NCBI GenBank assembly: GCA_964597365.1
Contig: CAZQXW010000007.1
Location: 2,268 to 66,267 of the forward strand
Direction: 5' to 3'
From: an uncultured Thermoplasmatales archaeon
GTDB taxonomy: Archaea > Thermoplasmatota > E2 > DHVEG-1
Length of the DNA: 64,000 nucleotides
A program made the translations under genes and the position numbers. The stretch's first letter is position 1. Every line of letters begins with the position of its first letter. Of this stretch, positions 3,787-42,946 are shown piece after piece. The notes under the pieces are model-generated. The model did not search any database. It saw only the letters and a list, made by a program, of their open reading frames with translations, and was not told the origin of the DNA.

Positions 3787-4078
3787 CCTCTTCTCCCTTT
3801 GTGTGTTTCATCACAGCCTCGACAAAATCGTTGACTGTAACGGTGTAGGTCTTACCGTCTACCTTCACAATCAAAGCGTCCATGCCACCGCACCCACACT
3901 CGCTGGTGACCTCGTACTTCTCTCCCTTGTGTTCGAAGGTAGCTGCTTCCATGTGAAACCCTATCTTCCAATCCGCCCTGATCTTAATAGGAATCTGCAA
4001 ACCAGAGTCGATGTACTCCGGCTGGTTCTGATCGATTCCCGGTCCTGACATTTTCCCTTGAATCATACTCTCCTCCAA
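3746..4078 (-). CDS. hypothetical protein
   Basis: ORF; exact start uncertain. Confidence 0.55.
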   Translation of the reverse strand: MEESMIQGKMSGPGIDQNQPEYIDSGLQIPIKIRADWKIGFHMEAATFEHKGEKYEVTSECGCGGMDALIVKVDGKTYTVTVNDFVEAVMKHTKGEEDESGEQGESEQES

Positions 4079-6099: not shown

Positions 6100-6909
6100 T
6101 TAAAATCGTAGATAGTCTAAAGGATTCACCAGCTTCCCGTCGAGCCACACCTCATAGTGAAGATGCTGCCCTCGGGAATCTCCCGTGTTTCCCATGATGC
6201 CTATTCTGTCACCCTGCTTTATTTCTCGACCTTCATGCACGTTCTTTAGATCGGTCGATTTCAGATGGGCATACACTGTTTCAAATCCACCGGCATGTCT
6301 AATCTTCACCATGCCTCCGTACTTATCGTGGCCCTTCCATCGTACACCATCAGGAGGAACGTAATGCTCTACGACTACACCATCAGCCGGAGCAATCACA
6401 TCCGCATTCCATGTTCCGGCTATGTCAATCCCGGTATGAAATGAAATCTCCCCGGATATCGGAGATATCCTCCATCCGAATCCTGAAGTAATCCGAGTAA
6501 GCTCATTGTACACCACTGGCCATATGCTGGGCACCTGCGCAAGGAACTCTTCCCGCTCTGTAAAGTAGTTGTCCATGGCTGATAGGATTTCTCGGTAGTC
6601 TAAGGAATAGTTCATGATGGCCTGATAGACCGCCTCTACATCCGCTCCTTCTTCGGTCTCAAAGCCACCCATGGCATGCTCTTCTCGCTCATACAACACC
6701 TTCACAATGTCGGTAAGCTTCTCTCGATACAACCCCTCATTCTCATCCTGAAGGGCCTCAAGCTCTTCCAACTCAGTACTCAATTGTTTAACAGTCTGAG
6801 AGTATTCGTTCTGACGGCGATGTTCAGCTGTCGCTATGTACGTTGCCAGATCGAACACGAGCAGAATACTGAGCGCAATAGCTATCCGCGCCCGTGTCTG
6901 AAAACTCAT
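6100..6909 (-). CDS. membrane-anchored M23 family metallopeptidase (peptidoglycan endopeptidase)
   Basis: N-terminal TM, coiled coil, HTGIDI (HxxxD) and HLHYEV (HxH) motifs. Confidence 0.9.
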   Translation of the reverse strand: MSFQTRARIAIALSILLVFDLATYIATAEHRRQNEYSQTVKQLSTELEELEALQDENEGLYREKLTDIVKVLYEREEHAMGGFETEEGADVEAVYQAIMNYSLDYREILSAMDNYFTEREEFLAQVPSIWPVVYNELTRITSGFGWRISPISGEISFHTGIDIAGTWNADVIAPADGVVVEHYVPPDGVRWKGHDKYGGMVKIRHAGGFETVYAHLKSTDLKNVHEGREIKQGDRIGIMGNTGDSRGQHLHYEVWLDGKLVNPLDYLRF

Positions 6910-34039: not shown

Positions 34040-35107
34040 CTACATCCTTGTCTTGCCGGATTTCTTGGATGCAGAGCCCTTAGACGACGCACGATTTCGT
34101 GTAGCCGTCTTACCCTTGGGAGGGGTTTTCTTCTCGGAAGCAGACTTCTTCGGGGCGGGCTTCTTCTTGGGAGGCGTCTCTTCCTCTTCCTCATCATCCT
34201 CGCCCGGAATATCGTCTTTGAACTCGTCGTTCTCCTCTTCGTCGTCTTCCTCTTCCTCGTCGGATTCAACGTCATCGAGGTAATCGTCATCAGGCTCGTC
34301 CTCCGAATCCTCTTCAAGAGCGACTTCCTCGTCCTCCTCCGGCTCCTCGGAATCCTGACCGCTGAGGTACTCCGCGACCTTCAGAACCTCGTCCTCATCG
34401 ATCTCCCCAAACTGATCAAGATCGAGCTTGGCAAGCTCTTCGGGAATCTCGATTTCGGGCATCTCGGACTCTTCCTCTTCCGCACCCCACACAACCTGTG
34501 TGTACTTGGTGTTACGGCCCTTCCGTCGCTCCTTCTTCGTCCAGAGCACACGGTTTCCGAGGTCCGACCCACTCTTGATGAATGGAGTGTTCTCCCCATT
34601 CCGAAGACCGATAAGGCCCTCCCACTGGGCGGTAGTCAGACTGAGAAGACCGATCTCTGCCGGATTCTCTTCAGCCTCGGTGTCGAAGTCCGCTTCGAGA
34701 TGCTTCCCGGTTTTGTCCTTCACCACGATGTACTGGCCACGGATCGCCTTCAGTATCACTCTACCCTTGGCGCGGAGGTCGTTCGCCTTGTTCTTCAGCT
34801 TGTCAGCTGCGGCGGAATCTCCGTCTTCGCGCATACGCTTTGCCTCTTGGTACATATCCAAAACATGGGCACATACCGGGCAGTTGTCGGCGTCGAATCC
34901 TTTGCCGTCTACACCACCAGCACAGATAACCGCTCTCCTACCTTGCGGCCCCTCGTACCAGTGAGCGAATGAGGTTGAATACTCCAACCCCAAGAGATAC
35001 CACGGAGTCTTCGCATCGGGTATGCTGAGAAAAGGCTGCCCGCCAGACGACTCCATGGCACTGGTTGTTTTTTGAACATCTTCGTCTCTATCAAGACTCT
35101 GAGCCAT
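34040..35107 (-). CDS. single-stranded DNA-binding protein (gp32-like, probable)
   Basis: Position next to recA; H..C...CPVC Zn ligands; long acidic tract then basic tail. Confidence 0.65.
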   Translation of the reverse strand: MAQSLDRDEDVQKTTSAMESSGGQPFLSIPDAKTPWYLLGLEYSTSFAHWYEGPQGRRAVICAGGVDGKGFDADNCPVCAHVLDMYQEAKRMREDGDSAAADKLKNKANDLRAKGRVILKAIRGQYIVVKDKTGKHLEADFDTEAEENPAEIGLLSLTTAQWEGLIGLRNGENTPFIKSGSDLGNRVLWTKKERRKGRNTKYTQVVWGAEEEESEMPEIEIPEELAKLDLDQFGEIDEDEVLKVAEYLSGQDSEEPEEDEEVALEEDSEDEPDDDYLDDVESDEEEEDDEEENDEFKDDIPGEDDEEEEETPPKKKPAPKKSASEKKTPPKGKTATRNRASSKGSASKKSGKTRM

Positions 35108-35117
35108 CAGTGTCCTC

Positions 35118-35621
35118 CTATATGTCTGCGAGCGACCCGCTCTCCCTCAACGAGGAAGATGACAGACTGCTGATCTCAGCATGCGTCAATCGGGCGATCT
35201 CGCGCAGTGTCCAGATTTGATTGTCGTACCCCTTCACGAGCACTGACACCTTCTTGTTGATGTCCACAAGGTCCCGCAGCGTGGACTTTTTCTTCCGATA
35301 CTGGTCCGCGTTATCCAGCATAACCTTAGACTTCTTCCAGCCCTCGGTAGCTTTCGGGTTCCCGTCATGGACATCCATGTACTGTTCTTGGAACCAAAGA
35401 TCGAACTCCTCTTCGGCCTCATCGATCTCTCGCTCCAAAGTAACCTGCAACGCTTTCCAGTACGATAGTCGCGCCGGAAGCTCGTTGAGGTATTGCTTGA
35501 TCTCTGATACCGACAGGTCCCTGAGAACCAGATTATCGGCTACAGCCGAACTGTAGGTTCGCCCTTTGTACTCGAACTCAATGTCTATCGGACCAAGATC
35601 AAGAAGGCTTTTCTTAGCCAT
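35118..35621 (-). CDS. helical protein, possible UvsY-like recombination mediator
   Basis: All-helical; adjacent to SSB/recA. Confidence 0.4.
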   Translation of the reverse strand: MAKKSLLDLGPIDIEFEYKGRTYSSAVADNLVLRDLSVSEIKQYLNELPARLSYWKALQVTLEREIDEAEEEFDLWFQEQYMDVHDGNPKATEGWKKSKVMLDNADQYRKKKSTLRDLVDINKKVSVLVKGYDNQIWTLREIARLTHAEISSLSSSSLRESGSLADI

Positions 35622-35651: not shown

Positions 35652-36749
35652 TCAGCGGGATTTTCTTACAACAGATTTGATGTCCAGCCGATCCACACCT
35701 TTCCGCTCTTCCAATCGAGTCTGATCCTTCTCAGTTCCTCGGATCATCTTGTCGATTCCCTTACTCCGAGCCATACCGCTCAAGAGCAGATGAACCTGCA
35801 TCTCGTTAATCCGAGAATTGTAGTAGCTGGTACGGATCACGGAGGGAGCGTGCCGAGTAGCCTTGCTTACCGCAGCAAAGACCTCCTCCACAAAATCCCC
35901 TATCCACGGGCGCTTCTGCCACATCATTGGCACCCCTATCGAGACAACGTATTGCTTGGTTGTCTTGATATCGAGAGAACCAAAGATCAAGCTCGACTCA
36001 CGAATAGCTCGCATAAGCCCGCCGTCCTCGGTTACCCGATCCGGGAACACCATACGGCGAAGGTCGATGTAGCCGTTCTGAGCGAAGAGAATCCTTCGAA
36101 GGTCATTCGCGTCGAGAGCCTTGTATCCCGAGGAGACATCAATGAAATCGCTGAACCGCTCCAGCTGCGTAAGCATGTAGAAGCGTTTTAGACTGGTAAC
36201 AATTCCAGCGTTGACACTGCCCCAGTAGTTACCGTCCCCTCTCCCGTACCGCTGCATACAGAAGTCGTTATCGATGAGCATGGTCGATATGCGCTCTTTC
36301 TGGATGTACTCTTTGACCAGACGGTCAAGCCCTTCTAAAGCGTTCGGCTTCGTTGGGAGACCTTCTCGCTTCTCTGGCAACGTGTAAATCACCAGAACAC
36401 GCTTTTCCTCAGCAAGCAGACAGTCAAGCACCGGAAACAGGAACCCTGTACCGGCTCCCCCACCACCCCCAACACAGACCAGAACAGTCTTGGCTGAAGG
36501 AAAATCCTTTCGCTGGTGTAGAAAGTCTACGATCTTCTGGTACTCATTTCGGGCGGCCATCTCCCCAAACTTCGGGTCTCGGCCGGTACCTCCATGTTCG
36601 AACACCAGACGCTCGTATCTACCGAACCCCATGTGTGCAAAGTCGATACCAGCAAGGTTCATCACCACGGCGGGCGATCCCATACCTTCCTTGACCGCTT
36701 TCGCAATGCGACCACCACCCTGACCCAGCCCTATTACGAATTCAAACAT
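35652..36749 (-). CDS. tubulin/FtsZ-family GTPase (TubZ/PhuZ/CetZ-like)
   Basis: IGLGQGGGRIA (T1), GGTGRDPKFG (T3), GGGGGAGTG (T4 signature), TLPEKREG (T5), LIDND (T6), ALDAND (T7). Confidence 0.92.
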   Translation of the reverse strand: MFEFVIGLGQGGGRIAKAVKEGMGSPAVVMNLAGIDFAHMGFGRYERLVFEHGGTGRDPKFGEMAARNEYQKIVDFLHQRKDFPSAKTVLVCVGGGGGAGTGFLFPVLDCLLAEEKRVLVIYTLPEKREGLPTKPNALEGLDRLVKEYIQKERISTMLIDNDFCMQRYGRGDGNYWGSVNAGIVTSLKRFYMLTQLERFSDFIDVSSGYKALDANDLRRILFAQNGYIDLRRMVFPDRVTEDGGLMRAIRESSLIFGSLDIKTTKQYVVSIGVPMMWQKRPWIGDFVEEVFAAVSKATRHAPSVIRTSYYNSRINEMQVHLLLSGMARSKGIDKMIRGTEKDQTRLEERKGVDRLDIKSVVRKSR

Positions 36750-37566
36750 TGAACTTCTCCTTAAAGAAGGCAATCACCCCTTCCAACCCTTCAACCACGG
36801 CCTTCGCCGTCGACTTATTGTTCTTCACAACCGTCGGGGAGAGGTTGGTAGCCATGAGAGGAGAAAGCTCCTTGAGGTCTTTCTTGATGATGTCGAGAAC
36901 CTTCTTAATTGACTCGGTCTCGCTGATCTCCTTTCGAAGAGCCGCCTGCTGCTTCTTGAGGTCCTTGAGCTTGGCCTCTTCTTCCTCGGTGAGATTCGAC
37001 TGACTTTTGAGCTTACCAACTTGCTCGGTCAGGCGCTCGATTTCAGCGTTCATCTCGCGCTCCATCTCATCATGGGTGTCGTCGGCTATCTTGGTGACCT
37101 CCTTGATCTTCTTGTTAAGCTCATCCTCGGTGTAGAGCTTCTTAGACGGCTCTGGGTCCTCGACAACCGCCTCTTCGGTCCCGTCGGAAAGCAACGCAAT
37201 CGCCCGACGGAGCGAGGGCAAATCGGCAACGCGTTGCCGATTTCGAGCGGCACGCATGTAATTCCGAGCCTCGCTCTCACCAAACGGAAGGTTCTCCTTG
37301 ATCCACGGAATCCACTCACCGTGCTTGAGTTCTTCCTTCTGAGCGATTAGCTCATTCCCGATCTCAATGAAAATGGGAGTAAGCTCCTCAACCGCCTTAC
37401 CAGCGATCCCCTCAGCCTTCTCATACAGCTTGTTGATCTTGTCTGCCCGAGAGACGGCCTTCGGTTTCTGAGAAGTCTTGCGCTTGGTTGCTGCCTTAGA
37501 CGCCTTTTCCGGCTCCGGGGAGAATACCTCTACCCCTTCAACACTCTTCGACTTTGAACTCGCCAT
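36742..37566 (-). CDS. DUF3102 domain DNA-binding protein with C-terminal coiled coil
   Basis: IEIGNELIAQKEELKHGEWIPWIKENLPFGESEARNYMR. Confidence 0.8.
   Translation of the reverse strand: MASSKSKSVEGVEVFSPEPEKASKAATKRKTSQKPKAVSRADKINKLYEKAEGIAGKAVEELTPIFIEIGNELIAQKEELKHGEWIPWIKENLPFGESEARNYMRAARNRQRVADLPSLRRAIALLSDGTEEAVVEDPEPSKKLYTEDELNKKIKEVTKIADDTHDEMEREMNAEIERLTEQVGKLKSQSNLTEEEEAKLKDLKKQQAALRKEISETESIKKVLDIIKKDLKELSPLMATNLSPTVVKNNKSTAKAVVEGLEGVIAFFKEKFNV
37211..37244. repeat. 34-bp sequence containing a 24-bp perfect palindrome, copy A (inside DUF3102 gene)
   Basis: AAATCGGCAACG-CGTTGCCGATTT at 37220-37243; exact reverse complement of 42848-42881. Confidence 0.95.
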
Positions 37567-38470
37567 AGTATTCCTCCACCTGCTCCGGTGTCATAGAATT
37601 AGGATCGGCCTCCTCGGGCAACTGTACGGTGATAGTGGGGACGTGACGACTCAATGTCGTCAATGCTCCAACACGCTTCTCATCACCGTACATCGCCCGC
37701 TGACCTGCCTCATCACCGTCGTAGCTAAGCACAACGCGCTTAGAGTATCGCCGAAGTTGTAACACCTTATCCGGCGTCATCTCCATCGTCCCCATGTTCG
37801 CTACAGCGGCAATCCCGAACTGTTGAAGGTAGATCGCATCGAACTCACCTTCTACGACAACGGTACATAATCGTATTCCCGGCCACTTTCTTACAGCCTG
37901 TCTCATTCCAAACAACGTTCGGTGTGGAGACCTGCTCTTCTTTGTCTTCGGAAGCATCCCTTTGGGAATGGCTCTTCCTACATAGGAAACCAGCTTACCT
38001 TCCGGGGTGTAGATCGGGATCACCACCCGGTCATGATACTTACGAACACCCACTCGCATATCAAACTCTCGGATCATCTGAGGAGAGATTCCCCGACCCA
38101 TCACATACTCCCACGCAGGAGAGCCTTCGACCACCTTCGGATAGATTTTATGGAACGACTTCACATTGAAGTACTTGAACGTATCCTCATCTTCATGAAG
38201 GTGCTTTCGAATCCGATTCTCCATATCGAGTACGGAGTCATCCTGTCGGGTTAGACGCCACGCAGAATAGTTCGAGATGTCGAGAGCCTTAGCGAGAAAG
38301 TCGGCAAGCGAGCCCTCTTCCTGACAAGCAAAGCACTTGAAATATCCCGTGTCCGCCCAGATTCCACAAGAGGGAACAGTGTCCTCATGGAACGGGCATA
38401 GAGCCATCAACCGCTTCCCGTGATCCTCGTACTCGATGTCGTTGTCTTGCAGAATCTGCTCAACATCCAT
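37538..38470 (-). CDS. dnaG: DNA primase (CHC2 Zn finger + TOPRIM)
   Basis: CPFHED...CFAC; VVEGEFD; YDGDEAG. Confidence 0.92.
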   Translation of the reverse strand: MDVEQILQDNDIEYEDHGKRLMALCPFHEDTVPSCGIWADTGYFKCFACQEEGSLADFLAKALDISNYSAWRLTRQDDSVLDMENRIRKHLHEDEDTFKYFNVKSFHKIYPKVVEGSPAWEYVMGRGISPQMIREFDMRVGVRKYHDRVVIPIYTPEGKLVSYVGRAIPKGMLPKTKKSRSPHRTLFGMRQAVRKWPGIRLCTVVVEGEFDAIYLQQFGIAAVANMGTMEMTPDKVLQLRRYSKRVVLSYDGDEAGQRAMYGDEKRVGALTTLSRHVPTITVQLPEEADPNSMTPEQVEEYYGEFKVEEC

Positions 38471-38471
38471 C

Positions 38472-38807
38472 TCAACCCTCGATATCCTCATCCAAATCAG
38501 ATTCCGTGAACTCTTCTTCCGACATGATCAACGAAGATACCATAGAAAGAATCTCGCTCCGGGTGTTCTCATTCACCCCCGAGCTATCCATGACGGTTAT
38601 GAGCCCTTCAGTAAGGTCTTCAAGCGCGATGAGTAGGTTCTCAAGAATCGTCACCGATGCAATGTCAAACTGCCACCGGGCAATACACCCAGAAACGGCG
38701 GTCCTCAGCTTTGGGTCGGGTATAGCCTCTGCGTAATCTTCAGTCGTCATCGGAAAGATGTCTGCCGGGTAAGGATTTCTCGGCCACCAATATGGTATGT
38801 TACTCAT
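38472..38807 (-). CDS. hypothetical protein
   Basis: Packed between helicase and primase. Confidence 0.6.
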   Translation of the reverse strand: MSNIPYWWPRNPYPADIFPMTTEDYAEAIPDPKLRTAVSGCIARWQFDIASVTILENLLIALEDLTEGLITVMDSSGVNENTRSEILSMVSSLIMSEEEFTESDLDEDIEG

Positions 38808-40318
38808 GATTTCCTCCTTTGCCTTGGCTTCGGTTTTGTCTTCCGAGCCTTTCGCTCCATCTCAACTACATTATCTTTGAGGTCCGCCAACGACGCAGTC
38901 TTCTTGACCTCCTCATGGAGACGCATAATTGACAGGTTCGGAGTCAGACGGATCGGTCTTGTCGGCACATCAGCGTTACGCATCTTAATCACCTGTAGCT
39001 TCATCCGACCCTCAACCAAATCCTTGTCCGTCTGAATGAGCGCAATGATCACCGGCGCTGCTTCGCTGATCGCCCGTGCGTACTTTGCATCCTGCGCATC
39101 GTACAATTCCTTATCATAGGCATCATCACGTACCTGACCTGCCGTCCAGCCCCCAATGTTCCGGTCCGAGCATAGCCCCTTGAAATCCCAAACCGCCTCT
39201 GACTGATCTTTAGCATCGCTACGTCCTCGCGTAACTGGGTCCACAATATTGATGTAATCGAGAAAGACCGCGCCAAGTTTCTCTCCGGTCTCCTCCTCGA
39301 TCCGGGTCATATCTCGATCCAGATCATCGATGGTAAACCGTCTCGGATAGCTGGCTATGTAGAACCTATTATCCTTCATAGCTCGGTACTGGATGATCGT
39401 GTTCTCCCACTTTTTGTAATCTTCTTCAGAAAGCTCTGCCGTCCTGAACTTCATGCCGGGGATTCTGGTAAGTCTTGCATCCACCCGAAAAGCAAGCTCT
39501 TCAATAGACATCTCTCCAGAACCAACAAACACATTATGCCCGTGTTCCCACGCATTCGCCGCAAACTCGATCAGCCCCGCTGTCTTACCTACCCCAGTCA
39601 CTCCGAGTATAACCCCGAACTCTTTTGGCATGAGACCGCCTGTAAGACGGTCGAACATAGGTATTCCTGTATGGATACCCACCTCACCATCTTCACTCGC
39701 ATCGACCGCCTGCTCCTTCTCCCGCATAACCTCAACGCGACGGTCATAATGCTCCAAGTAGTCGACCGTATTTTCGGTATCATTCAACCGAGCTTCCCGA
39801 GCCACTGACAAGAGTTTGGTCTTTGCTGACTGCAAATCGAACTGACGTATAGTACCAATCACCTGTCCACAAGCTTTGAGCACCCGTCTCGATTCATAAA
39901 GGTTCAACAGTTGGGACATCATATGCCGAACGGTCTTCTCATTGATCGGAGCAACGTTCACCTCGAACAACTGGTCAAGAGCTTCCTCAAATAATCCCCG
40001 CTCCTTCTGGGACATCAATCCCCGGCTCTTCAACTCATTCAAGATCATTGCCCGAGACAACACAATCCGAAGATCGCTGGCTACATCAAACACATCCTGT
40101 AAGAGGATGTCAGAAAACCACAACTTCTCGACCATACCTAACACAGAAGGGTTTTCCCGAATACCGTAAGCAAGGAGTTGATACTCGATCTCAGGGTCCC
40201 TGAAGTCTGCTGCCCTTTCTTCGATGTCTTTGTCGATAGGCTTACTGTTGCTTGGCTTTTTCCCAGTCAAGGGTTTCCTCCTGCTGTTCCCTATCTCGCA
40301 GAATGTTAGCGGATTCAA
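38804..40318 (-). CDS. dnaB: replicative DnaB-like helicase
   Basis: GVTGVGKT, SGEMS, VFLDYINI, TAGQV, KMRN. Confidence 0.92.
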   Translation of the reverse strand: MNPLTFCEIGNSRRKPLTGKKPSNSKPIDKDIEERAADFRDPEIEYQLLAYGIRENPSVLGMVEKLWFSDILLQDVFDVASDLRIVLSRAMILNELKSRGLMSQKERGLFEEALDQLFEVNVAPINEKTVRHMMSQLLNLYESRRVLKACGQVIGTIRQFDLQSAKTKLLSVAREARLNDTENTVDYLEHYDRRVEVMREKEQAVDASEDGEVGIHTGIPMFDRLTGGLMPKEFGVILGVTGVGKTAGLIEFAANAWEHGHNVFVGSGEMSIEELAFRVDARLTRIPGMKFRTAELSEEDYKKWENTIIQYRAMKDNRFYIASYPRRFTIDDLDRDMTRIEEETGEKLGAVFLDYINIVDPVTRGRSDAKDQSEAVWDFKGLCSDRNIGGWTAGQVRDDAYDKELYDAQDAKYARAISEAAPVIIALIQTDKDLVEGRMKLQVIKMRNADVPTRPIRLTPNLSIMRLHEEVKKTASLADLKDNVVEMERKARKTKPKPRQRRKS

Positions 40319-41051
40319 GTATGTGAGAGTTCCAATAATCTACCTCAGAATCCAATCGAGACATCCAATCAGCTGACTGTGTGTTCCGATAGTCCTCCCC
40401 CAACAGAGCAAGAAAGCGCAGATGTCCTCGAAGCATTGACATCGTAGATTCGCCAAACATCTTCGTTAAATCTTCCTCAGAAAGATTCGTACAGATGATA
40501 AAAGCAACCCCACGACTGATCATTCTACGAACGAACTCCTCCAGAGTCTTTGAAACGAAGTTCGAGTTCTGGGCGATGTACACCTTATCCAACTCATCCA
40601 GTAGGAGAATCTCTCCCGACTCATACTCTTCGAGAAGCTCGGTGTCCTTCGCCTTCACCGCCTCAACGTATTGCTGAGCCGTGAAGTACTGAACGGAATA
40701 CCCTTTCACAATCGCACGCTTTCCTATAGCGCACTGCAACGAAGTCTTCCCTCGACCATTAGGACCCATGAACAGAATCCCCAGAGACTTCTTCGTAGCG
40801 GCCCGAAGCTTGTCAGTGTAGTGCTTAGATACCGCAACAACACTCTTCGGCTTGACCTCGGTAAGGTCGTCAAAAGAAAGCTCCCAGTACTCAGTAGGAA
40901 TCTTGGATTCGATCAGGAAGTTCAGATAGTGTTGGATGATCCGGCAATCACACAGATTCCCATCAACCAACCCAGAACCTCCACACACCTCACACTGATC
41001 AACAAGCTCCTCTCTGAGGTCAACCATGCGATCAAGAATCTTTCTTCGCAT
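40242..41051 (-). CDS. DnaC/IstB-like helicase loader ATPase
   Basis: CEVC..C.C Zn; GPNGRGKT; LLLDELD; ICTNLS. Confidence 0.85.
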   Translation of the reverse strand: MRRKILDRMVDLREELVDQCEVCGGSGLVDGNLCDCRIIQHYLNFLIESKIPTEYWELSFDDLTEVKPKSVVAVSKHYTDKLRAATKKSLGILFMGPNGRGKTSLQCAIGKRAIVKGYSVQYFTAQQYVEAVKAKDTELLEEYESGEILLLDELDKVYIAQNSNFVSKTLEEFVRRMISRGVAFIICTNLSEEDLTKMFGESTMSMLRGHLRFLALLGEDYRNTQSADWMSRLDSEVDYWNSHILESANILRDREQQEETLDWEKAKQQ

Positions 41052-41814
41052 TTATCCTCTCCAGTTCTGCGGTAAGCACCTTGTCTTGCTCCTCCACCAA
41101 ACGGCGGTAACCGTCATCGTTCTCCAGATTGCTGGAAGTATTCAAGTAGGAGTCTGTCTTTCCTTCAAGTTCTTCATCCTTGAACTCCTCCACCATCGCC
41201 GGGTACAGAAACAGACCGTAGTTGAACTTCTTCCGAGGGTACTTATTCACTCGGTACCACTTGCAGTACTTATCAAAGTCAACCTCATCCATCAGCTGGA
41301 TCAGTTTTGAAAACCCGTGGTGCTTTGTAAGAAATACTGGGTTGATCTTATTCTTTGGAAAGTACTTCAAGAGGATAGCTTCTGCTTTCTTCCAATCCTC
41401 ATCCTCAAGAATATCCTCCAGAGACCAGTTTCTTCCCTTTCCTCCAGTGGAGGATTTTTCCAAATTGATATCGCCCGGTCCCTCTTTCTTCTTATTCTCT
41501 TCTCTTCTAATATTGTAAGAGTCATACAAGATTAGAATAGACTGGGCGATATCAATTTGGAAAATATTCTTTACCTCAACAACAATTCTCCTGCCTTTTT
41601 TGTGGGTGGTGGTGATAAACCCGGTCCTCTCCAAGGTGTCTCGGGCAGCTTTGATCGTGTGCGGGCTCCTGATATTGGTACCCTCTTTGATCTCAGCCAT
41701 CGTAGGAGCATCCTGTCCATGGTCTTCAAAGTAGCTGAATAGAACTAACAATTCGAAGTGCTCAGATTCTACCGCAAGCTCTCTCAGCAATGTTCGGGTC
41801 TTGGACGAGATCAA
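41032..41814 (-). CDS. probable replication initiator
   Basis: N-terminal winged HTH (PTMAEIKEGTNIRSPHTIKAARDTLERTGFI), directly upstream of loader and helicase, internal IR + AT-rich tract. Confidence 0.6.
   Translation of the reverse strand: MISSKTRTLLRELAVESEHFELLVLFSYFEDHGQDAPTMAEIKEGTNIRSPHTIKAARDTLERTGFITTTHKKGRRIVVEVKNIFQIDIAQSILILYDSYNIRREENKKKEGPGDINLEKSSTGGKGRNWSLEDILEDEDWKKAEAILLKYFPKNKINPVFLTKHHGFSKLIQLMDEVDFDKYCKWYRVNKYPRKKFNYGLFLYPAMVEEFKDEELEGKTDSYLNTSSNLENDDGYRRLVEEQDKVLTAELERINAKKDS
41456..41564. other. candidate replication origin: 25-bp inverted repeat around AT-rich 59-bp spacer
   Basis: TTTTCCAAATTGATATCGCCCGGTC ... GACTGGGCGATATCAATTTGGAAAA (24/25); spacer 17/59 GC. 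Confidence 0.6.
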
Positions 41815-42192: not shown

Positions 42193-42777
42193 TCATCGTA
42201 CAGGAGCAAGATTTCTTACAGCATCTGCGTTGAAAACTCGACTTCGGATCACATATAGATAGTTGGTAGTAACGCCCAGTTCTTCTGCTGCTTCTTTCGT
42301 TGAATAACCTTTCCGCAGAAGCCGGAACCAACGAAAAGCCACAACGTATTGTGCGGCCTTTTCTGCTTCGGCTTCAAGAGATTTCTCGATCCGGTCAAGC
42401 GCATCGGATACTTCAATCTCTTCAAATCCGGGATCGTGTGCGAAGTACTTCTGTACGATCCCTTGGTATACCGGGTCGTCGCTATCGATTGAGTTTGGAT
42501 CAAATCTCATGATCGATTCGTTGAAGGGTAGCTTTCGGTATCTACCATCTATCAAGTGCCCATACTTCGATTGAGCCGCTGACTTGGCAAATACAAGAAA
42601 GCTCGTTTTGTCGTCGTATTTGGGGAGAGCTTTGATGACGGCTTCCCATAACTCCTGTTCAGCGTCCTCTTTATCCATCGTGTGAGGAAACCTGCGAGCC
42701 AACTTGTTTGCTTGGATTCCGATAAATGCTTTGAGGTCCTCATTCTCGAAGACTTGTGTACAGACTGAACTTGACAT
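42193..42777 (-). CDS. RNA polymerase sigma factor (sigma70-family, ECF-like)
   Basis: DKEDAEQELWEAVIKALPKYD region 2; YSTKEAAEELGVTTNYL region 4 HTH. Confidence 0.8.
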   Translation of the reverse strand: MSSSVCTQVFENEDLKAFIGIQANKLARRFPHTMDKEDAEQELWEAVIKALPKYDDKTSFLVFAKSAAQSKYGHLIDGRYRKLPFNESIMRFDPNSIDSDDPVYQGIVQKYFAHDPGFEEIEVSDALDRIEKSLEAEAEKAAQYVVAFRWFRLLRKGYSTKEAAEELGVTTNYLYVIRSRVFNADAVRNLAPVR

Positions 42778-42809: not shown

Positions 42810-42838
42810 ATCTTAGCAGATCATGCCAGTTGTGTCAA
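42810..42838 (-). promoter_or_regulatory. sigma70-type promoter of replication operon
   Basis: TTGACA (42833-42838), 17-bp spacer, TAAGAT (42810-42815). Confidence 0.75.
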
Positions 42839-42847
42839 GTTGTATTT

Positions 42848-42881
42848 GAAATCGGCAACGCGTTGCCGATTTGCCCTCGCT
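42848..42881. repeat. 34-bp palindrome-containing sequence, copy B (10 bp upstream of -35)
   Basis: Palindrome 42849-42872; inverted copy of 37211-37244. Confidence 0.95.
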
Positions 42882-42882
42882 T

Positions 42883-42946
42883 AAAAATGGGGTGACCCGC
42901 CGAAACGAGCCACCCCGGAGAAGAGAAGAGACGCCTCCGAAGAGGC
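42883..42946 (-). terminator. terminator of late/lysis transcript
   Basis: CGCCUC-UUCG-GAGGCG then GGGGUGGC...GUCACCCC-AUUUUU. Confidence 0.7.

Follow-up and report, generated by a model that had tools for sequence, protein, structure and literature searches.

A TubZ-like tubulin in the replication operon of an uncultured myovirus and its candidate DNA-binding partner

Phage tubulins are known in two settings, as the PhuZ spindles of nucleus-forming jumbo phages and as the TubZRC system of a plasmid prophage, and KfrA-type plasmid proteins, which join an N-terminal DNA-binding domain to a long coiled coil, are known as partition accessories. The locus described here lies on a 64,000-nt stretch of contig CAZQXW010000007.1 (assembly GCA_964597365.1), the whole of which is referred to below as the window. 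It comprises a gene for a 365-aa tubulin/FtsZ-superfamily GTPase and, directly upstream, a gene for a 274-aa protein with a DUF3102 domain, both within the replication operon of a phage that was recovered to 67 of ~95 kb. Our preferred reading, drawn from sequence comparison and predicted structures and held with middling confidence, is that the tubulin is a TubZ-like positioning motor and the DUF3102 protein a clade-specific, exchangeable partner of the centromere-binding type. The type of motor is known; what is new is its constant location within the replisome operon in apparently non-temperate phages, a swappable partner of the kind found in the ParB position, and a palindrome which that partner encodes itself. 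No description was found in the literature of this tubulin family, of tubulins in the replisome operons of mid-sized phages, or of a function for DUF3102, which is mentioned only in passing.

A TubZ-side tubulin family next to the primase

Judged by sequence and model, the 365-aa protein is clearly a member of the tubulin/FtsZ superfamily. An earlier reading, made from the sequence alone, had recognised the loops T1 and T3–T7 in it, and these were borne out by an alignment of 30 homologues, in which T3 (GGTGRDP, G53–P59), T5 (PEKREG..NA, P125-E129-P132/N136) and T6 (N161) are invariant or nearly so, and the T7 pattern L212-D213-x-x-(D/E)216 is conserved in 30/30 sequences (see Table 1 for T1, T4 and T7). 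The AlphaFold2 (AF2) model (predicted local distance difference test, pLDDT, 89.5; predicted template modelling score, pTM, 0.88) has two domains joined by the core helix H7, and ends in a C-terminal helix, H11 (aa 330–348), followed by a low-confidence basic tail (..LDIKSVVRKSR). Against PF00091 the protein scores 31 bits, 2 below the cut-off of 33; most homologues pass, and a precomputed PF00091 match exists for almost all of the 88 homologue clusters.

The longest frame runs over 35652–36773, with a TTG at 36773, but the correct start codon is the ATG at 36749, because 88/88 homologue clusters begin with MF(D/E)F and the called product has 365 aa. An AAGGAG Shine-Dalgarno sequence lies 11 nt 5' of this ATG, and the TGA of the DUF3102 gene (36744–36742) falls within ATGTTTGA, giving an 8-nt stop/start overlap (36742–36749, minus strand) that confirms the overlap noticed earlier. 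The same geometry is present in L007, L012 and L028, making four loci with the window, and ATGTTTGA would be expected to couple translation of the tubulin to that of the DUF3102 gene.

Placement of the tubulin rests on Foldseek, phmmer and Pfam results. Foldseek against the PDB gave 955 matches at E ≤ 0.001, and the best 50 of the 955 are all TubZ, CetZ or FtsZ. The highest-ranking is Bacillus cereus TubZ (4ei7; template modelling score by query, TMq, 0.80, and by target, TMt, 0.77; E 8.5e-23), followed by B. thuringiensis TubZ at about 0.75 (TMq 0.75–0.77 to 2xka), with CetZ (0.66–0.71) and FtsZ (~0.6) ranking behind TubZ. Among predicted viral structures (BFVD) an uncultured phage's 'FtsZ' matches best (TM 0.82, 22% identity), and PhuZ-type entries reach a TM of about 0.5 (0.51–0.58). 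Helix H11 of the model is also found in TubZ, CetZ and tubulin, whereas FtsZ is without it. By phmmer against the PDB, Odinarchaeota FtsZ1 comes top (1.6e-9), B. cereus TubZ/RepX is matched at 3.6e-6, and CetZ and FtsZ are found as well; identity to FtsZ is at most 21% in structural alignments, and sequence identity to TubZ is <20%. A search of 1.84 billion representatives with the family profile returned 67 proteins at ≤1e-30 and 581 at ≤1e-10, several of the distant ones carrying Pfam TubZ-like_C (PF22453), which the window protein does not reach, and tblastn against GenBank phages detected no homologue. The Foldseek ranking, H11 and the profile matches with TubZ-like_C together place the tubulin, as far as sequence and predicted fold allow, in a family of its own that lies on the TubZ side within the superfamily. 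Two distant relatives have unusual compositions: in P0159 (812 aa) a group-1 glycosyltransferase is fused to a GTPase domain of the tubulin family, and P0198 (961 aa, from the tubulin-profile search) contains an intein with a LAGLIDADG endonuclease.

Seventeen loci that carry a tubulin of the window's family (35–78% identical to it) and have readable upstream context were compared. The neighbourhoods came from exact-protein look-ups; scanning viral, genome and metagenome collections for tubulin motifs gave only four loci among a flood of generic GGGGG-G-G matches. In all 17 the tubulin gene comes after DnaC-like, DnaB and DnaG genes and often overlaps the primase gene, an order that is kept despite different polymerases (PolA in L003 and L005, Pol III alpha in L006). 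Percent identity to the window in L007, L008, L009, L012 and L001, in that order, is 78/75/70/65/64 for the tubulin, 67/58/62/58/54 for DnaB, 62/53/58/61/51 for the primase and 30/28/29/28/22 for the protein between primase and tubulin; for RecA, compared in L007, L008 and L009 only (L012 and L001 not compared), it is 66/60/64. Among the proteins compared, the tubulin is thus the best conserved of the replication module and the intervening protein the least, which resembles the usual pattern of a motor and its centromere-binding partner.

The partner protein and its palindromes

The position between primase and tubulin (the slot) is filled by a DUF3102 protein in 5/17 loci (window, L007, L008, L009, L028) and by another long helical protein in 3/17 (L012, L001, L014). 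A check of gene neighbourhoods proposed by the sequence-only reading therefore did recover the pairing of DUF3102 with tubulin, in four loci beyond the window, but the pairing is not universal. A maximum-likelihood tree of the tubulins unites the six sampled slot-bearing loci in one clade (support 97/93), within which four DUF3102 loci form a sub-clade (100/97), and the sister group of the slot-bearing clade has no slot gene. This topology argues for a single gain of the partner, in one clade, and for a tubulin that is older than its partner.

The DUF3102 domain (PF11300) is matched at residues 65–108 with 37.4 bits against a cut-off of 24.4, and is present in a single copy on the contig. The AF2 model of the slot protein is of low confidence (pLDDT 65.5), with clear secondary structure, including a helix-turn-helix (HTH)-like pair at aa 85–92 and 97–108; the successive regions of the protein are given in Table 1. 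Profile searches of the PDB with the slot protein were empty, and neither a TubR nor a winged-HTH match was obtained. The slot proteins of L012 and the window are alike at both ends, in the N-terminal tail (54% identity over 37 aa) and in the last 123 aa (E 4e-4), and the middle of the L012 protein is different and HTH-like. L028 and L012 match almost perfectly in their flanks, with 99.9% identity along the 3806 bp upstream and 100% along the 706 bp downstream, and differ solely by an in-frame cassette, which has 337 bp and encodes DUF3102 in L028 (3807–4143) but has 388 bp and encodes the other domain in L012 (6215–6602); the L012 cassette has a palindrome of its own, TCTCGCCAAATGGCGAGA (6391–6408). 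Such a swap with both ends kept suggests that the DNA-binding module is exchangeable on a constant scaffold, and a scaffold that stays constant in turn suggests that what it interacts with is constant too. The basic tail of the tubulin is longer in the slot-bearing clade (for example SVVRKSRKQ) than in slot-less loci (for example ENIR), and an acidic linker is present in the slot proteins.

Within the DUF3102 open reading frame (ORF) of the window lies a 34-bp element containing a 24-bp palindrome, AAATCGGCAACGCGTTGCCGATTT, a perfect 12+12 dyad that encodes RNRQRVADL (aa 108–116). This palindrome occurs exactly twice in the window, and none of the window shuffles gave two matches. The two copies agree over 34 identical bases and are inverted relative to each other; the second is a lineage-specific 34-bp insert that ends 10 bp 5' of the −35 box, at about −57 from the predicted start site. 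The terminator and promoter on either side of it are conserved in L012, which lacks the insert and whose slot protein bears the other DNA-binding domain. L028, too, has a perfect dyad at the codons that hold the intragenic copy in the window, AAATCGGAAACGCGTTTCCGATTT (4050–4073), which differs from that of the window by a symmetric double substitution changing two amino acids. More widely, 10/13 DUF3102 genes have a dyad of 24–27 bp with at least 10/11 symmetric pairs at a fixed position just after the YM(R/K) helix, with a common outer AAAT...ATTT, varying inner bases and no relation among the peptides encoded there (LNVARVQHL, INASTLTHL, FKSEIVSDL, QIRTAGADL). That symmetry is kept while both DNA and peptide change indicates selection on the DNA, and both the common outer frame and the fact that the second copy lies in untranscribed DNA speak for a protein-binding site rather than an RNA hairpin. 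The intragenic palindrome is thus probably the DUF3102 protein's own binding site, whether parS or operator. The earlier proposal of the palindrome as a candidate centromere gains from this recurrence at the same codons.

A centromere within the gene of its binding protein has a precedent in B. subtilis, where the first parS lies inside spo0J. The half-site of the intragenic palindrome on Leptospira kobayashii plasmid pE30-1, TGTTGCAC (L022 5207–5230), fits what we take to be the canonical chromosomal parS half-site, TGTTNCAC, with two extra central bases. L001, whose slot protein has a non-DUF3102 module, carries just 5' of its replication operon (193–432) seven tandem 30-bp repeats, TGTGTGTCTACCGTGGACACGGCAAAAAAG, each an imperfect dyad, in an iteron- or centromere-like array. 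Duplicated palindromes were not found in L007, L009, L012 or L001.

DUF3102 genes elsewhere bear on what the module may do. A tblastn search with the module matched 23 plasmids, most of them from Leptospira, as well as the Leptospira plasmid prophage LE1. In LE1 the ParA gene (Orf3) is followed by the DUF3102 gene (Orf4); in L. kobayashii pE30-1 and L. interrogans p3 the DUF3102 gene directly follows ParA with a 4-nt overlap; and in Methylorubrum pB146-3 ParA lies upstream with one small ORF between. The ParA-type ATPases beside DUF3102 genes were confirmed as AAA_31/CbiA; in L. mayottensis what lies upstream is an 86-aa fragment annotated as ParA. In a freshwater phage the DUF3102 gene lies upstream of the primase gene, and on a Cytobacillus plasmid it lies beside PcfJ. 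In Leptospira the gene after parA has been named 'parB', and shuttle vectors use parAB-rep fragments (PMC4338851, PMC4140679). DUF3102 proteins thus occupy the ParB position, and from this position a functional ParB role may be inferred. On the window's contig there is no ParA, and the neighbour of the DUF3102 gene is the tubulin.

Operon surroundings, host and life style

All genes around the tubulin locus lie on the minus strand in a single long block, for which the coordinates are collected in Table 1. The promoter at its head drives an operon running from the sigma-like gene through primase, DUF3102 and tubulin to Rad50; inside the block no promoter- or terminator-like site rose above shuffled background, and the start of the DUF3102 ORF overlaps the end of the primase gene by 29 nt. 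The sequence-only reading had put the pair between primase and SSB/RecA (SSB, single-stranded-DNA-binding protein). The primase is indeed directly upstream, but on the other side a 167-aa gene intervenes, and the 355-aa protein labelled SSB has no Pfam or PHROG match, leaving that label without support. The 355-aa protein has a CPVC..H motif, a long acidic region and then a basic tail; it might plausibly be a gp32-like SSB.

Table 1. Features of the tubulin locus in the window, and palindromes in related DUF3102 genes.
Feature	Position	Strand	Remarks
Intrinsic terminator	42889–42916	minus	12-bp stem, kept in L012; closes upstream structural-gene block
Second copy of 34-bp element, inverted	42848–42881 (palindrome 42849–42872)		between terminator hairpin and operon promoter
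Sigma-70-type promoter	42810–42838	minus	TTGACA-17-TAAGAT, extended TG; heads replication operon; sequence conserved in L012
Sigma-like protein	42193–42777	minus	
120-aa protein	after sigma-like gene	minus	
Winged-helix initiator-like protein	41032–41814	minus	
DnaC/IstB-like loader	40242–41051	minus	
DnaB	38804–40318	minus	
111-aa protein	between DnaB and DnaG primase	minus	
DnaG-type primase	37538–38491	minus	sole universal neighbour of tubulin gene
DUF3102 slot protein, 274 aa	36742–37566	minus	
Slot protein, disordered basic N-tail	aa 1–38		
Slot protein, DUF3102 HTH-like module	37186–37449 (aa 40–127)	minus	apparently exchangeable cassette (L028 vs L012)
34-bp element with perfect 24-bp palindrome	37211–37244 (palindrome 37220–37243)		AAATCGGCAACGCGTTGCCGATTT; in DUF3102 ORF
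Slot protein, disordered acidic linker	aa 128–146		
Slot protein, helical hairpin/coiled coil	aa 147–238		
Slot protein, C-terminal helices	C-terminal end		end FFKEKFNV; conserved KEKF(D/N)V
Tubulin/FtsZ-superfamily GTPase, 365 aa	35652–36749	minus	
T1 loop GLGQGGGR	36708–36731 (aa 7–14)	minus	G7, G9, G12 invariant; Q10, G11 at least 90%
T4 tubulin signature	36444–36470 (aa 94–102)	minus	GGGGGAGTG; G94–G98, G100, G102 invariant; aligns with T4 of FtsZ and TubZ
T7 loop ALDANDL	36099–36119 (aa 211–217)	minus	acidic pair D213/D216, predicted catalytic
Conserved 167-aa protein	35118–35621	minus	between tubulin and 355-aa acidic protein
355-aa acidic protein	34040–35107	minus	
RecA, Mre11/SbcD, Rad50/SbcC, then helicase, 5'-3' exonuclease, UDG-PolA	downstream of 355-aa gene	minus	
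Palindrome, pE30-1	L022 5207–5230		AAATGTTGCACGGGTGCAACATTT
Palindrome, L. mayottensis			AAATGCGTCAACACTGACGCATTT
Palindrome, L. interrogans / L. noguchii			AAATACGACACCAGTGTCGGATTT
Palindrome, L008	9286–9309		AAATGCGACTTATAGGTCGCATTT
Palindrome, Methylorubrum			CAAATCCGAAATCGTTTCGGATTTG
Palindrome, freshwater phage			CAAATCCGCACCGCAGGTGCGGATTTG
Palindrome, Cytobacillus			CAAATTCCCAAACGATTGAGAATTTG; weaker
Intragenic palindromes of DUF3102 genes, by locus	L026 2707–2730; L025 2641–2664; L023 2638–2662; L021 5220–5246		

The 167-aa protein is present in every locus that has the 355-aa/RecA/Mre11/Rad50 block and absent where the block is absent (L006, L002). Its co-occurrence with the tubulin is therefore inseparable from co-occurrence with the recombination genes, and it was rejected as a true conserved partner or TubR analogue. 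Its sole consistent family match is to the unannotated phrog_1069; an identification as UvsY was likewise set aside, with a single weak PHROG match (E 0.07) and an hhalign probability of 0.4% against T4 UvsY. Inside the winged-helix initiator-like gene is an inverted repeat with arms of 19–25 bp, found in the window (41456–41564) and in L007 (5541–5641), L012 (2436–2530) and L009 (2544–2599); the sequences differ and the place in the gene is identical, which fits an origin embedded in the gene. Inteins occur in the replication and recombination genes of relatives, with a RecA carrying an intein and HNH and a helicase carrying an intein (L012 9711–12647; L013 10548–12694).

The window also encodes a tail sheath, baseplate, terminase and M23 peptidase, and the phage is thus a myovirus. 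A sigma factor, a −35/−10 promoter, bacterial-type DnaB, DnaC, DnaG and RecA, and a peptidoglycan hydrolase point to a bacterial host, and the presence of the contig in an archaeal assembly is probably a binning artefact. The assembly holds two genuine FtsZ genes elsewhere, which score 170 and 144 bits against PF00091, compared with 27–34 bits for the phage tubulin. One relative carrying the tubulin, G007, is a complete 95.7-kb genome with direct terminal repeats. Whole-record searches of G007 and of G004 (91 kb, 95% complete) found no tyrosine integrase, serine recombinase or ParA, and no integrase or ParA was found on the window's contig. The group therefore appears to consist of uncultured myoviruses of ~90–96 kb that are apparently non-temperate. 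An apparent pseudogene, the split tubulin of G004, proved to be an N-mask artefact.

Proposed mechanism, alternatives and known systems

The proposed mechanism has two layers. The first, which we consider likely on the strength of sequence comparison and predicted fold, is that a TubZ-type polymerising GTPase, expressed with the replisome, organises the DNA of an apparently non-temperate phage as it replicates. The tubulin would be an old, conserved component of the replication operon (DnaC-like, DnaB, DnaG, tubulin) that forms GTP-hydrolysing filaments, and these dynamic filaments would most likely position or spread phage DNA or replisomes during replication. The second layer, for which the chances look about even, is that the slot protein binds the palindromes via DUF3102, links DNA to the filament via its constant C-terminal part and regulates the operon promoter. 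Here a modular protein would have been inserted once between primase and tubulin and then become translationally coupled to the latter; it may bind both palindromes (37220–37243 and 42849–42872), could regulate the operon promoter adjoining the second copy, and would tether palindrome-bearing DNA to the tubulin filament as an analogue of a centromere-binding protein, TubR or TubY. A bolder version, which we put forward tentatively and regard as doubtful, is a hybrid machine in which a ParB-position DUF3102 module with a self-encoded parS-like palindrome has been harnessed to a tubulin instead of ParA in an apparently virulent phage. Site and module lie in one cassette of ~340 bp and so are exchangeable together, as the swap between L028 and L012 illustrates. 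If this version were true, co-infecting relatives would have distinct filament 'addresses', much like plasmid incompatibility groups, and DUF3102 would be a widespread, unrecognised centromere-binding family with self-encoded centromeres.

Several observations weigh against the slot protein as a centromere-binding partner. A long slot protein is missing from 9/17 loci: in three (L013, L004, L002) the slot holds an unrelated ORF of 75–100 aa, and in six (L018, L003, G004, L011, L005, L006) it is empty, often with the primase overlapping the tubulin start. DUF3102 was not found anywhere in the complete G007 or in G004, both of which have the tubulin, and so the tubulin works without DUF3102, which is not its general adaptor. 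The suggestion made earlier that DUF3102 is the adaptor is consequently favoured by the ParB position of its homologues and by the cassette swap, but limited to one clade and a single gain. The dyad is absent from 3/13 DUF3102 genes (L007, L009 and LE1 Orf4), of which L007 and L009 are close relatives; there are only two copies of the palindrome, unlike the iterated tubC arrays of TubZRC; the poor model of the slot protein gave no significant Foldseek match, only coiled-coil noise; and the co-occurrence of a basic tubulin tail with an acidic linker is suggestive but confounded with phylogeny.

The chief alternative, which we think unlikely, is that the slot protein is a transcription regulator only, lodged at a permissive insertion site and with no link to the tubulin. 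The slot is variable, holding unrelated proteins, short ORFs or nothing, the second palindrome at about −57 is in a classical regulator position, and swaps of DNA-binding modules are typical of phage regulators. A mere regulator does not, however, sit easily with the close start/stop overlap that joins the slot gene to the tubulin gene in four loci, with a long coiled coil and C-terminal helix that are kept while the module is exchanged, or with the ParB position of DUF3102 elsewhere; moreover, centromere-binding proteins normally regulate their own operon too, making regulation compatible with tethering. It is less probable still that the tubulin serves replication itself, for instance by scaffolding or organising the replisome or initiation, and moves no DNA, with the slot protein as an accessory origin- or DNA-binding factor. 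A replication role was first proposed for the TubZ homologue RepX, and the tubulin invariably follows DnaC-like, DnaB and DnaG genes, often overlapping the primase, whatever the polymerase type, and is conserved above DnaB and RecA. Yet the RepX/TubZ replication phenotypes were later ascribed to partition, we know of no tubulin-family protein in replication chemistry, and the intact T7 loop argues for a dynamic polymer.

The sequence-only reading had proposed a type III partition or positioning system. Its positioning half is upheld by the TubZ-like tubulin, whereas classical TubZRC-like partition of a low-copy plasmid prophage now seems very unlikely. The TubZ-like fold, a partner of centromere-binding type with a palindromic site, and DUF3102 homologues on the plasmid prophage LE1 and on plasmids would all suit plasmid partition. 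Against it, the lack of integrase, serine recombinase and ParA together with the terminal repeats of one complete genome argues for positioning in lytic replication; no resolvase was found in G007 or G004 either, no repressor-type genes were noticed, a full replisome, sigma-like factor and recombination genes are present as in virulent phages, and most family members lack any adaptor. That the tubulin poisons or hijacks the host FtsZ ring and blocks division, as was also raised earlier, is hardly credible. Nothing specific speaks for it beyond a best PDB sequence match that is an FtsZ; identity to any FtsZ is ~20%, the fold is TubZ/CetZ-like with H11, the full catalytic set is under strong purifying selection, and the gene sits in the replication operon. 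Known phage inhibitors of FtsZ, moreover, are small peptides.

The preferred reading, a TubZ-like motor with a clade-specific partner, would add a third setting for phage tubulins, that of mid-sized, apparently non-temperate phages with a TubZ-like tubulin as a fixed member of the replisome operon. Conservation of the tubulin above helicase and recombinase implies that cytoskeletal organisation of DNA is important well outside the jumbo phages. The clade-specific partner would show how motors gain DNA adaptors, here as a modular protein with a DNA-binding unit from the ParA world, and DUF3102 receives a testable function, the palindrome becoming a parS candidate in Leptospira plasmids and shuttle vectors.

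Among known systems, TubZRC(-TubY) of pBtoxis, pXO1-like plasmids and Clostridium phage c-st is like this locus in having a TubZ-like GTPase with a C-terminal helix and flexible tail, a DNA-binding protein encoded upstream in the same operon and translationally coupled, and a DNA site beside the operon promoter. TubY resembles the slot protein in its N-terminal HTH-type module, coiled coil and conserved C-terminal Lys/Phe-rich tail (PMC7762940). Unlike TubZRC, the phage has neither a small winged-helix TubR nor a MerR-type TubY, the partner being DUF3102 or another swappable module; it has one 24-bp palindrome in two copies, one of them within the partner ORF, instead of an iteron array; and the carrier is an apparently non-temperate ~95-kb myovirus in a family whose members mostly have no adaptor. 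The PhuZ spindle is likewise built from a phage-encoded tubulin that presumably positions phage DNA in lytic replication. It differs in fold (TM ~0.5) and genome size (>200 kb against ~95 kb), and the phage tubulin gene here sits in the replisome operon; a chimallin-type context did not turn up, although no explicit chimallin search was made. To KfrA the slot protein appears analogous in overall architecture and in a presumed role of operator binding and partition accessory, but no sequence or fold match was obtained. Finally, the ParA-'ParB' loci of Leptospira and LE1 share with this locus the same PF11300 module, the intragenic position of the palindrome and its AAAT...ATTT frame. Their motor, however, is a Walker-type ParA encoded upstream, whereas in the phage it is a tubulin encoded downstream, and the phage protein has, besides the shared module, a long coiled coil and a C-terminal domain.

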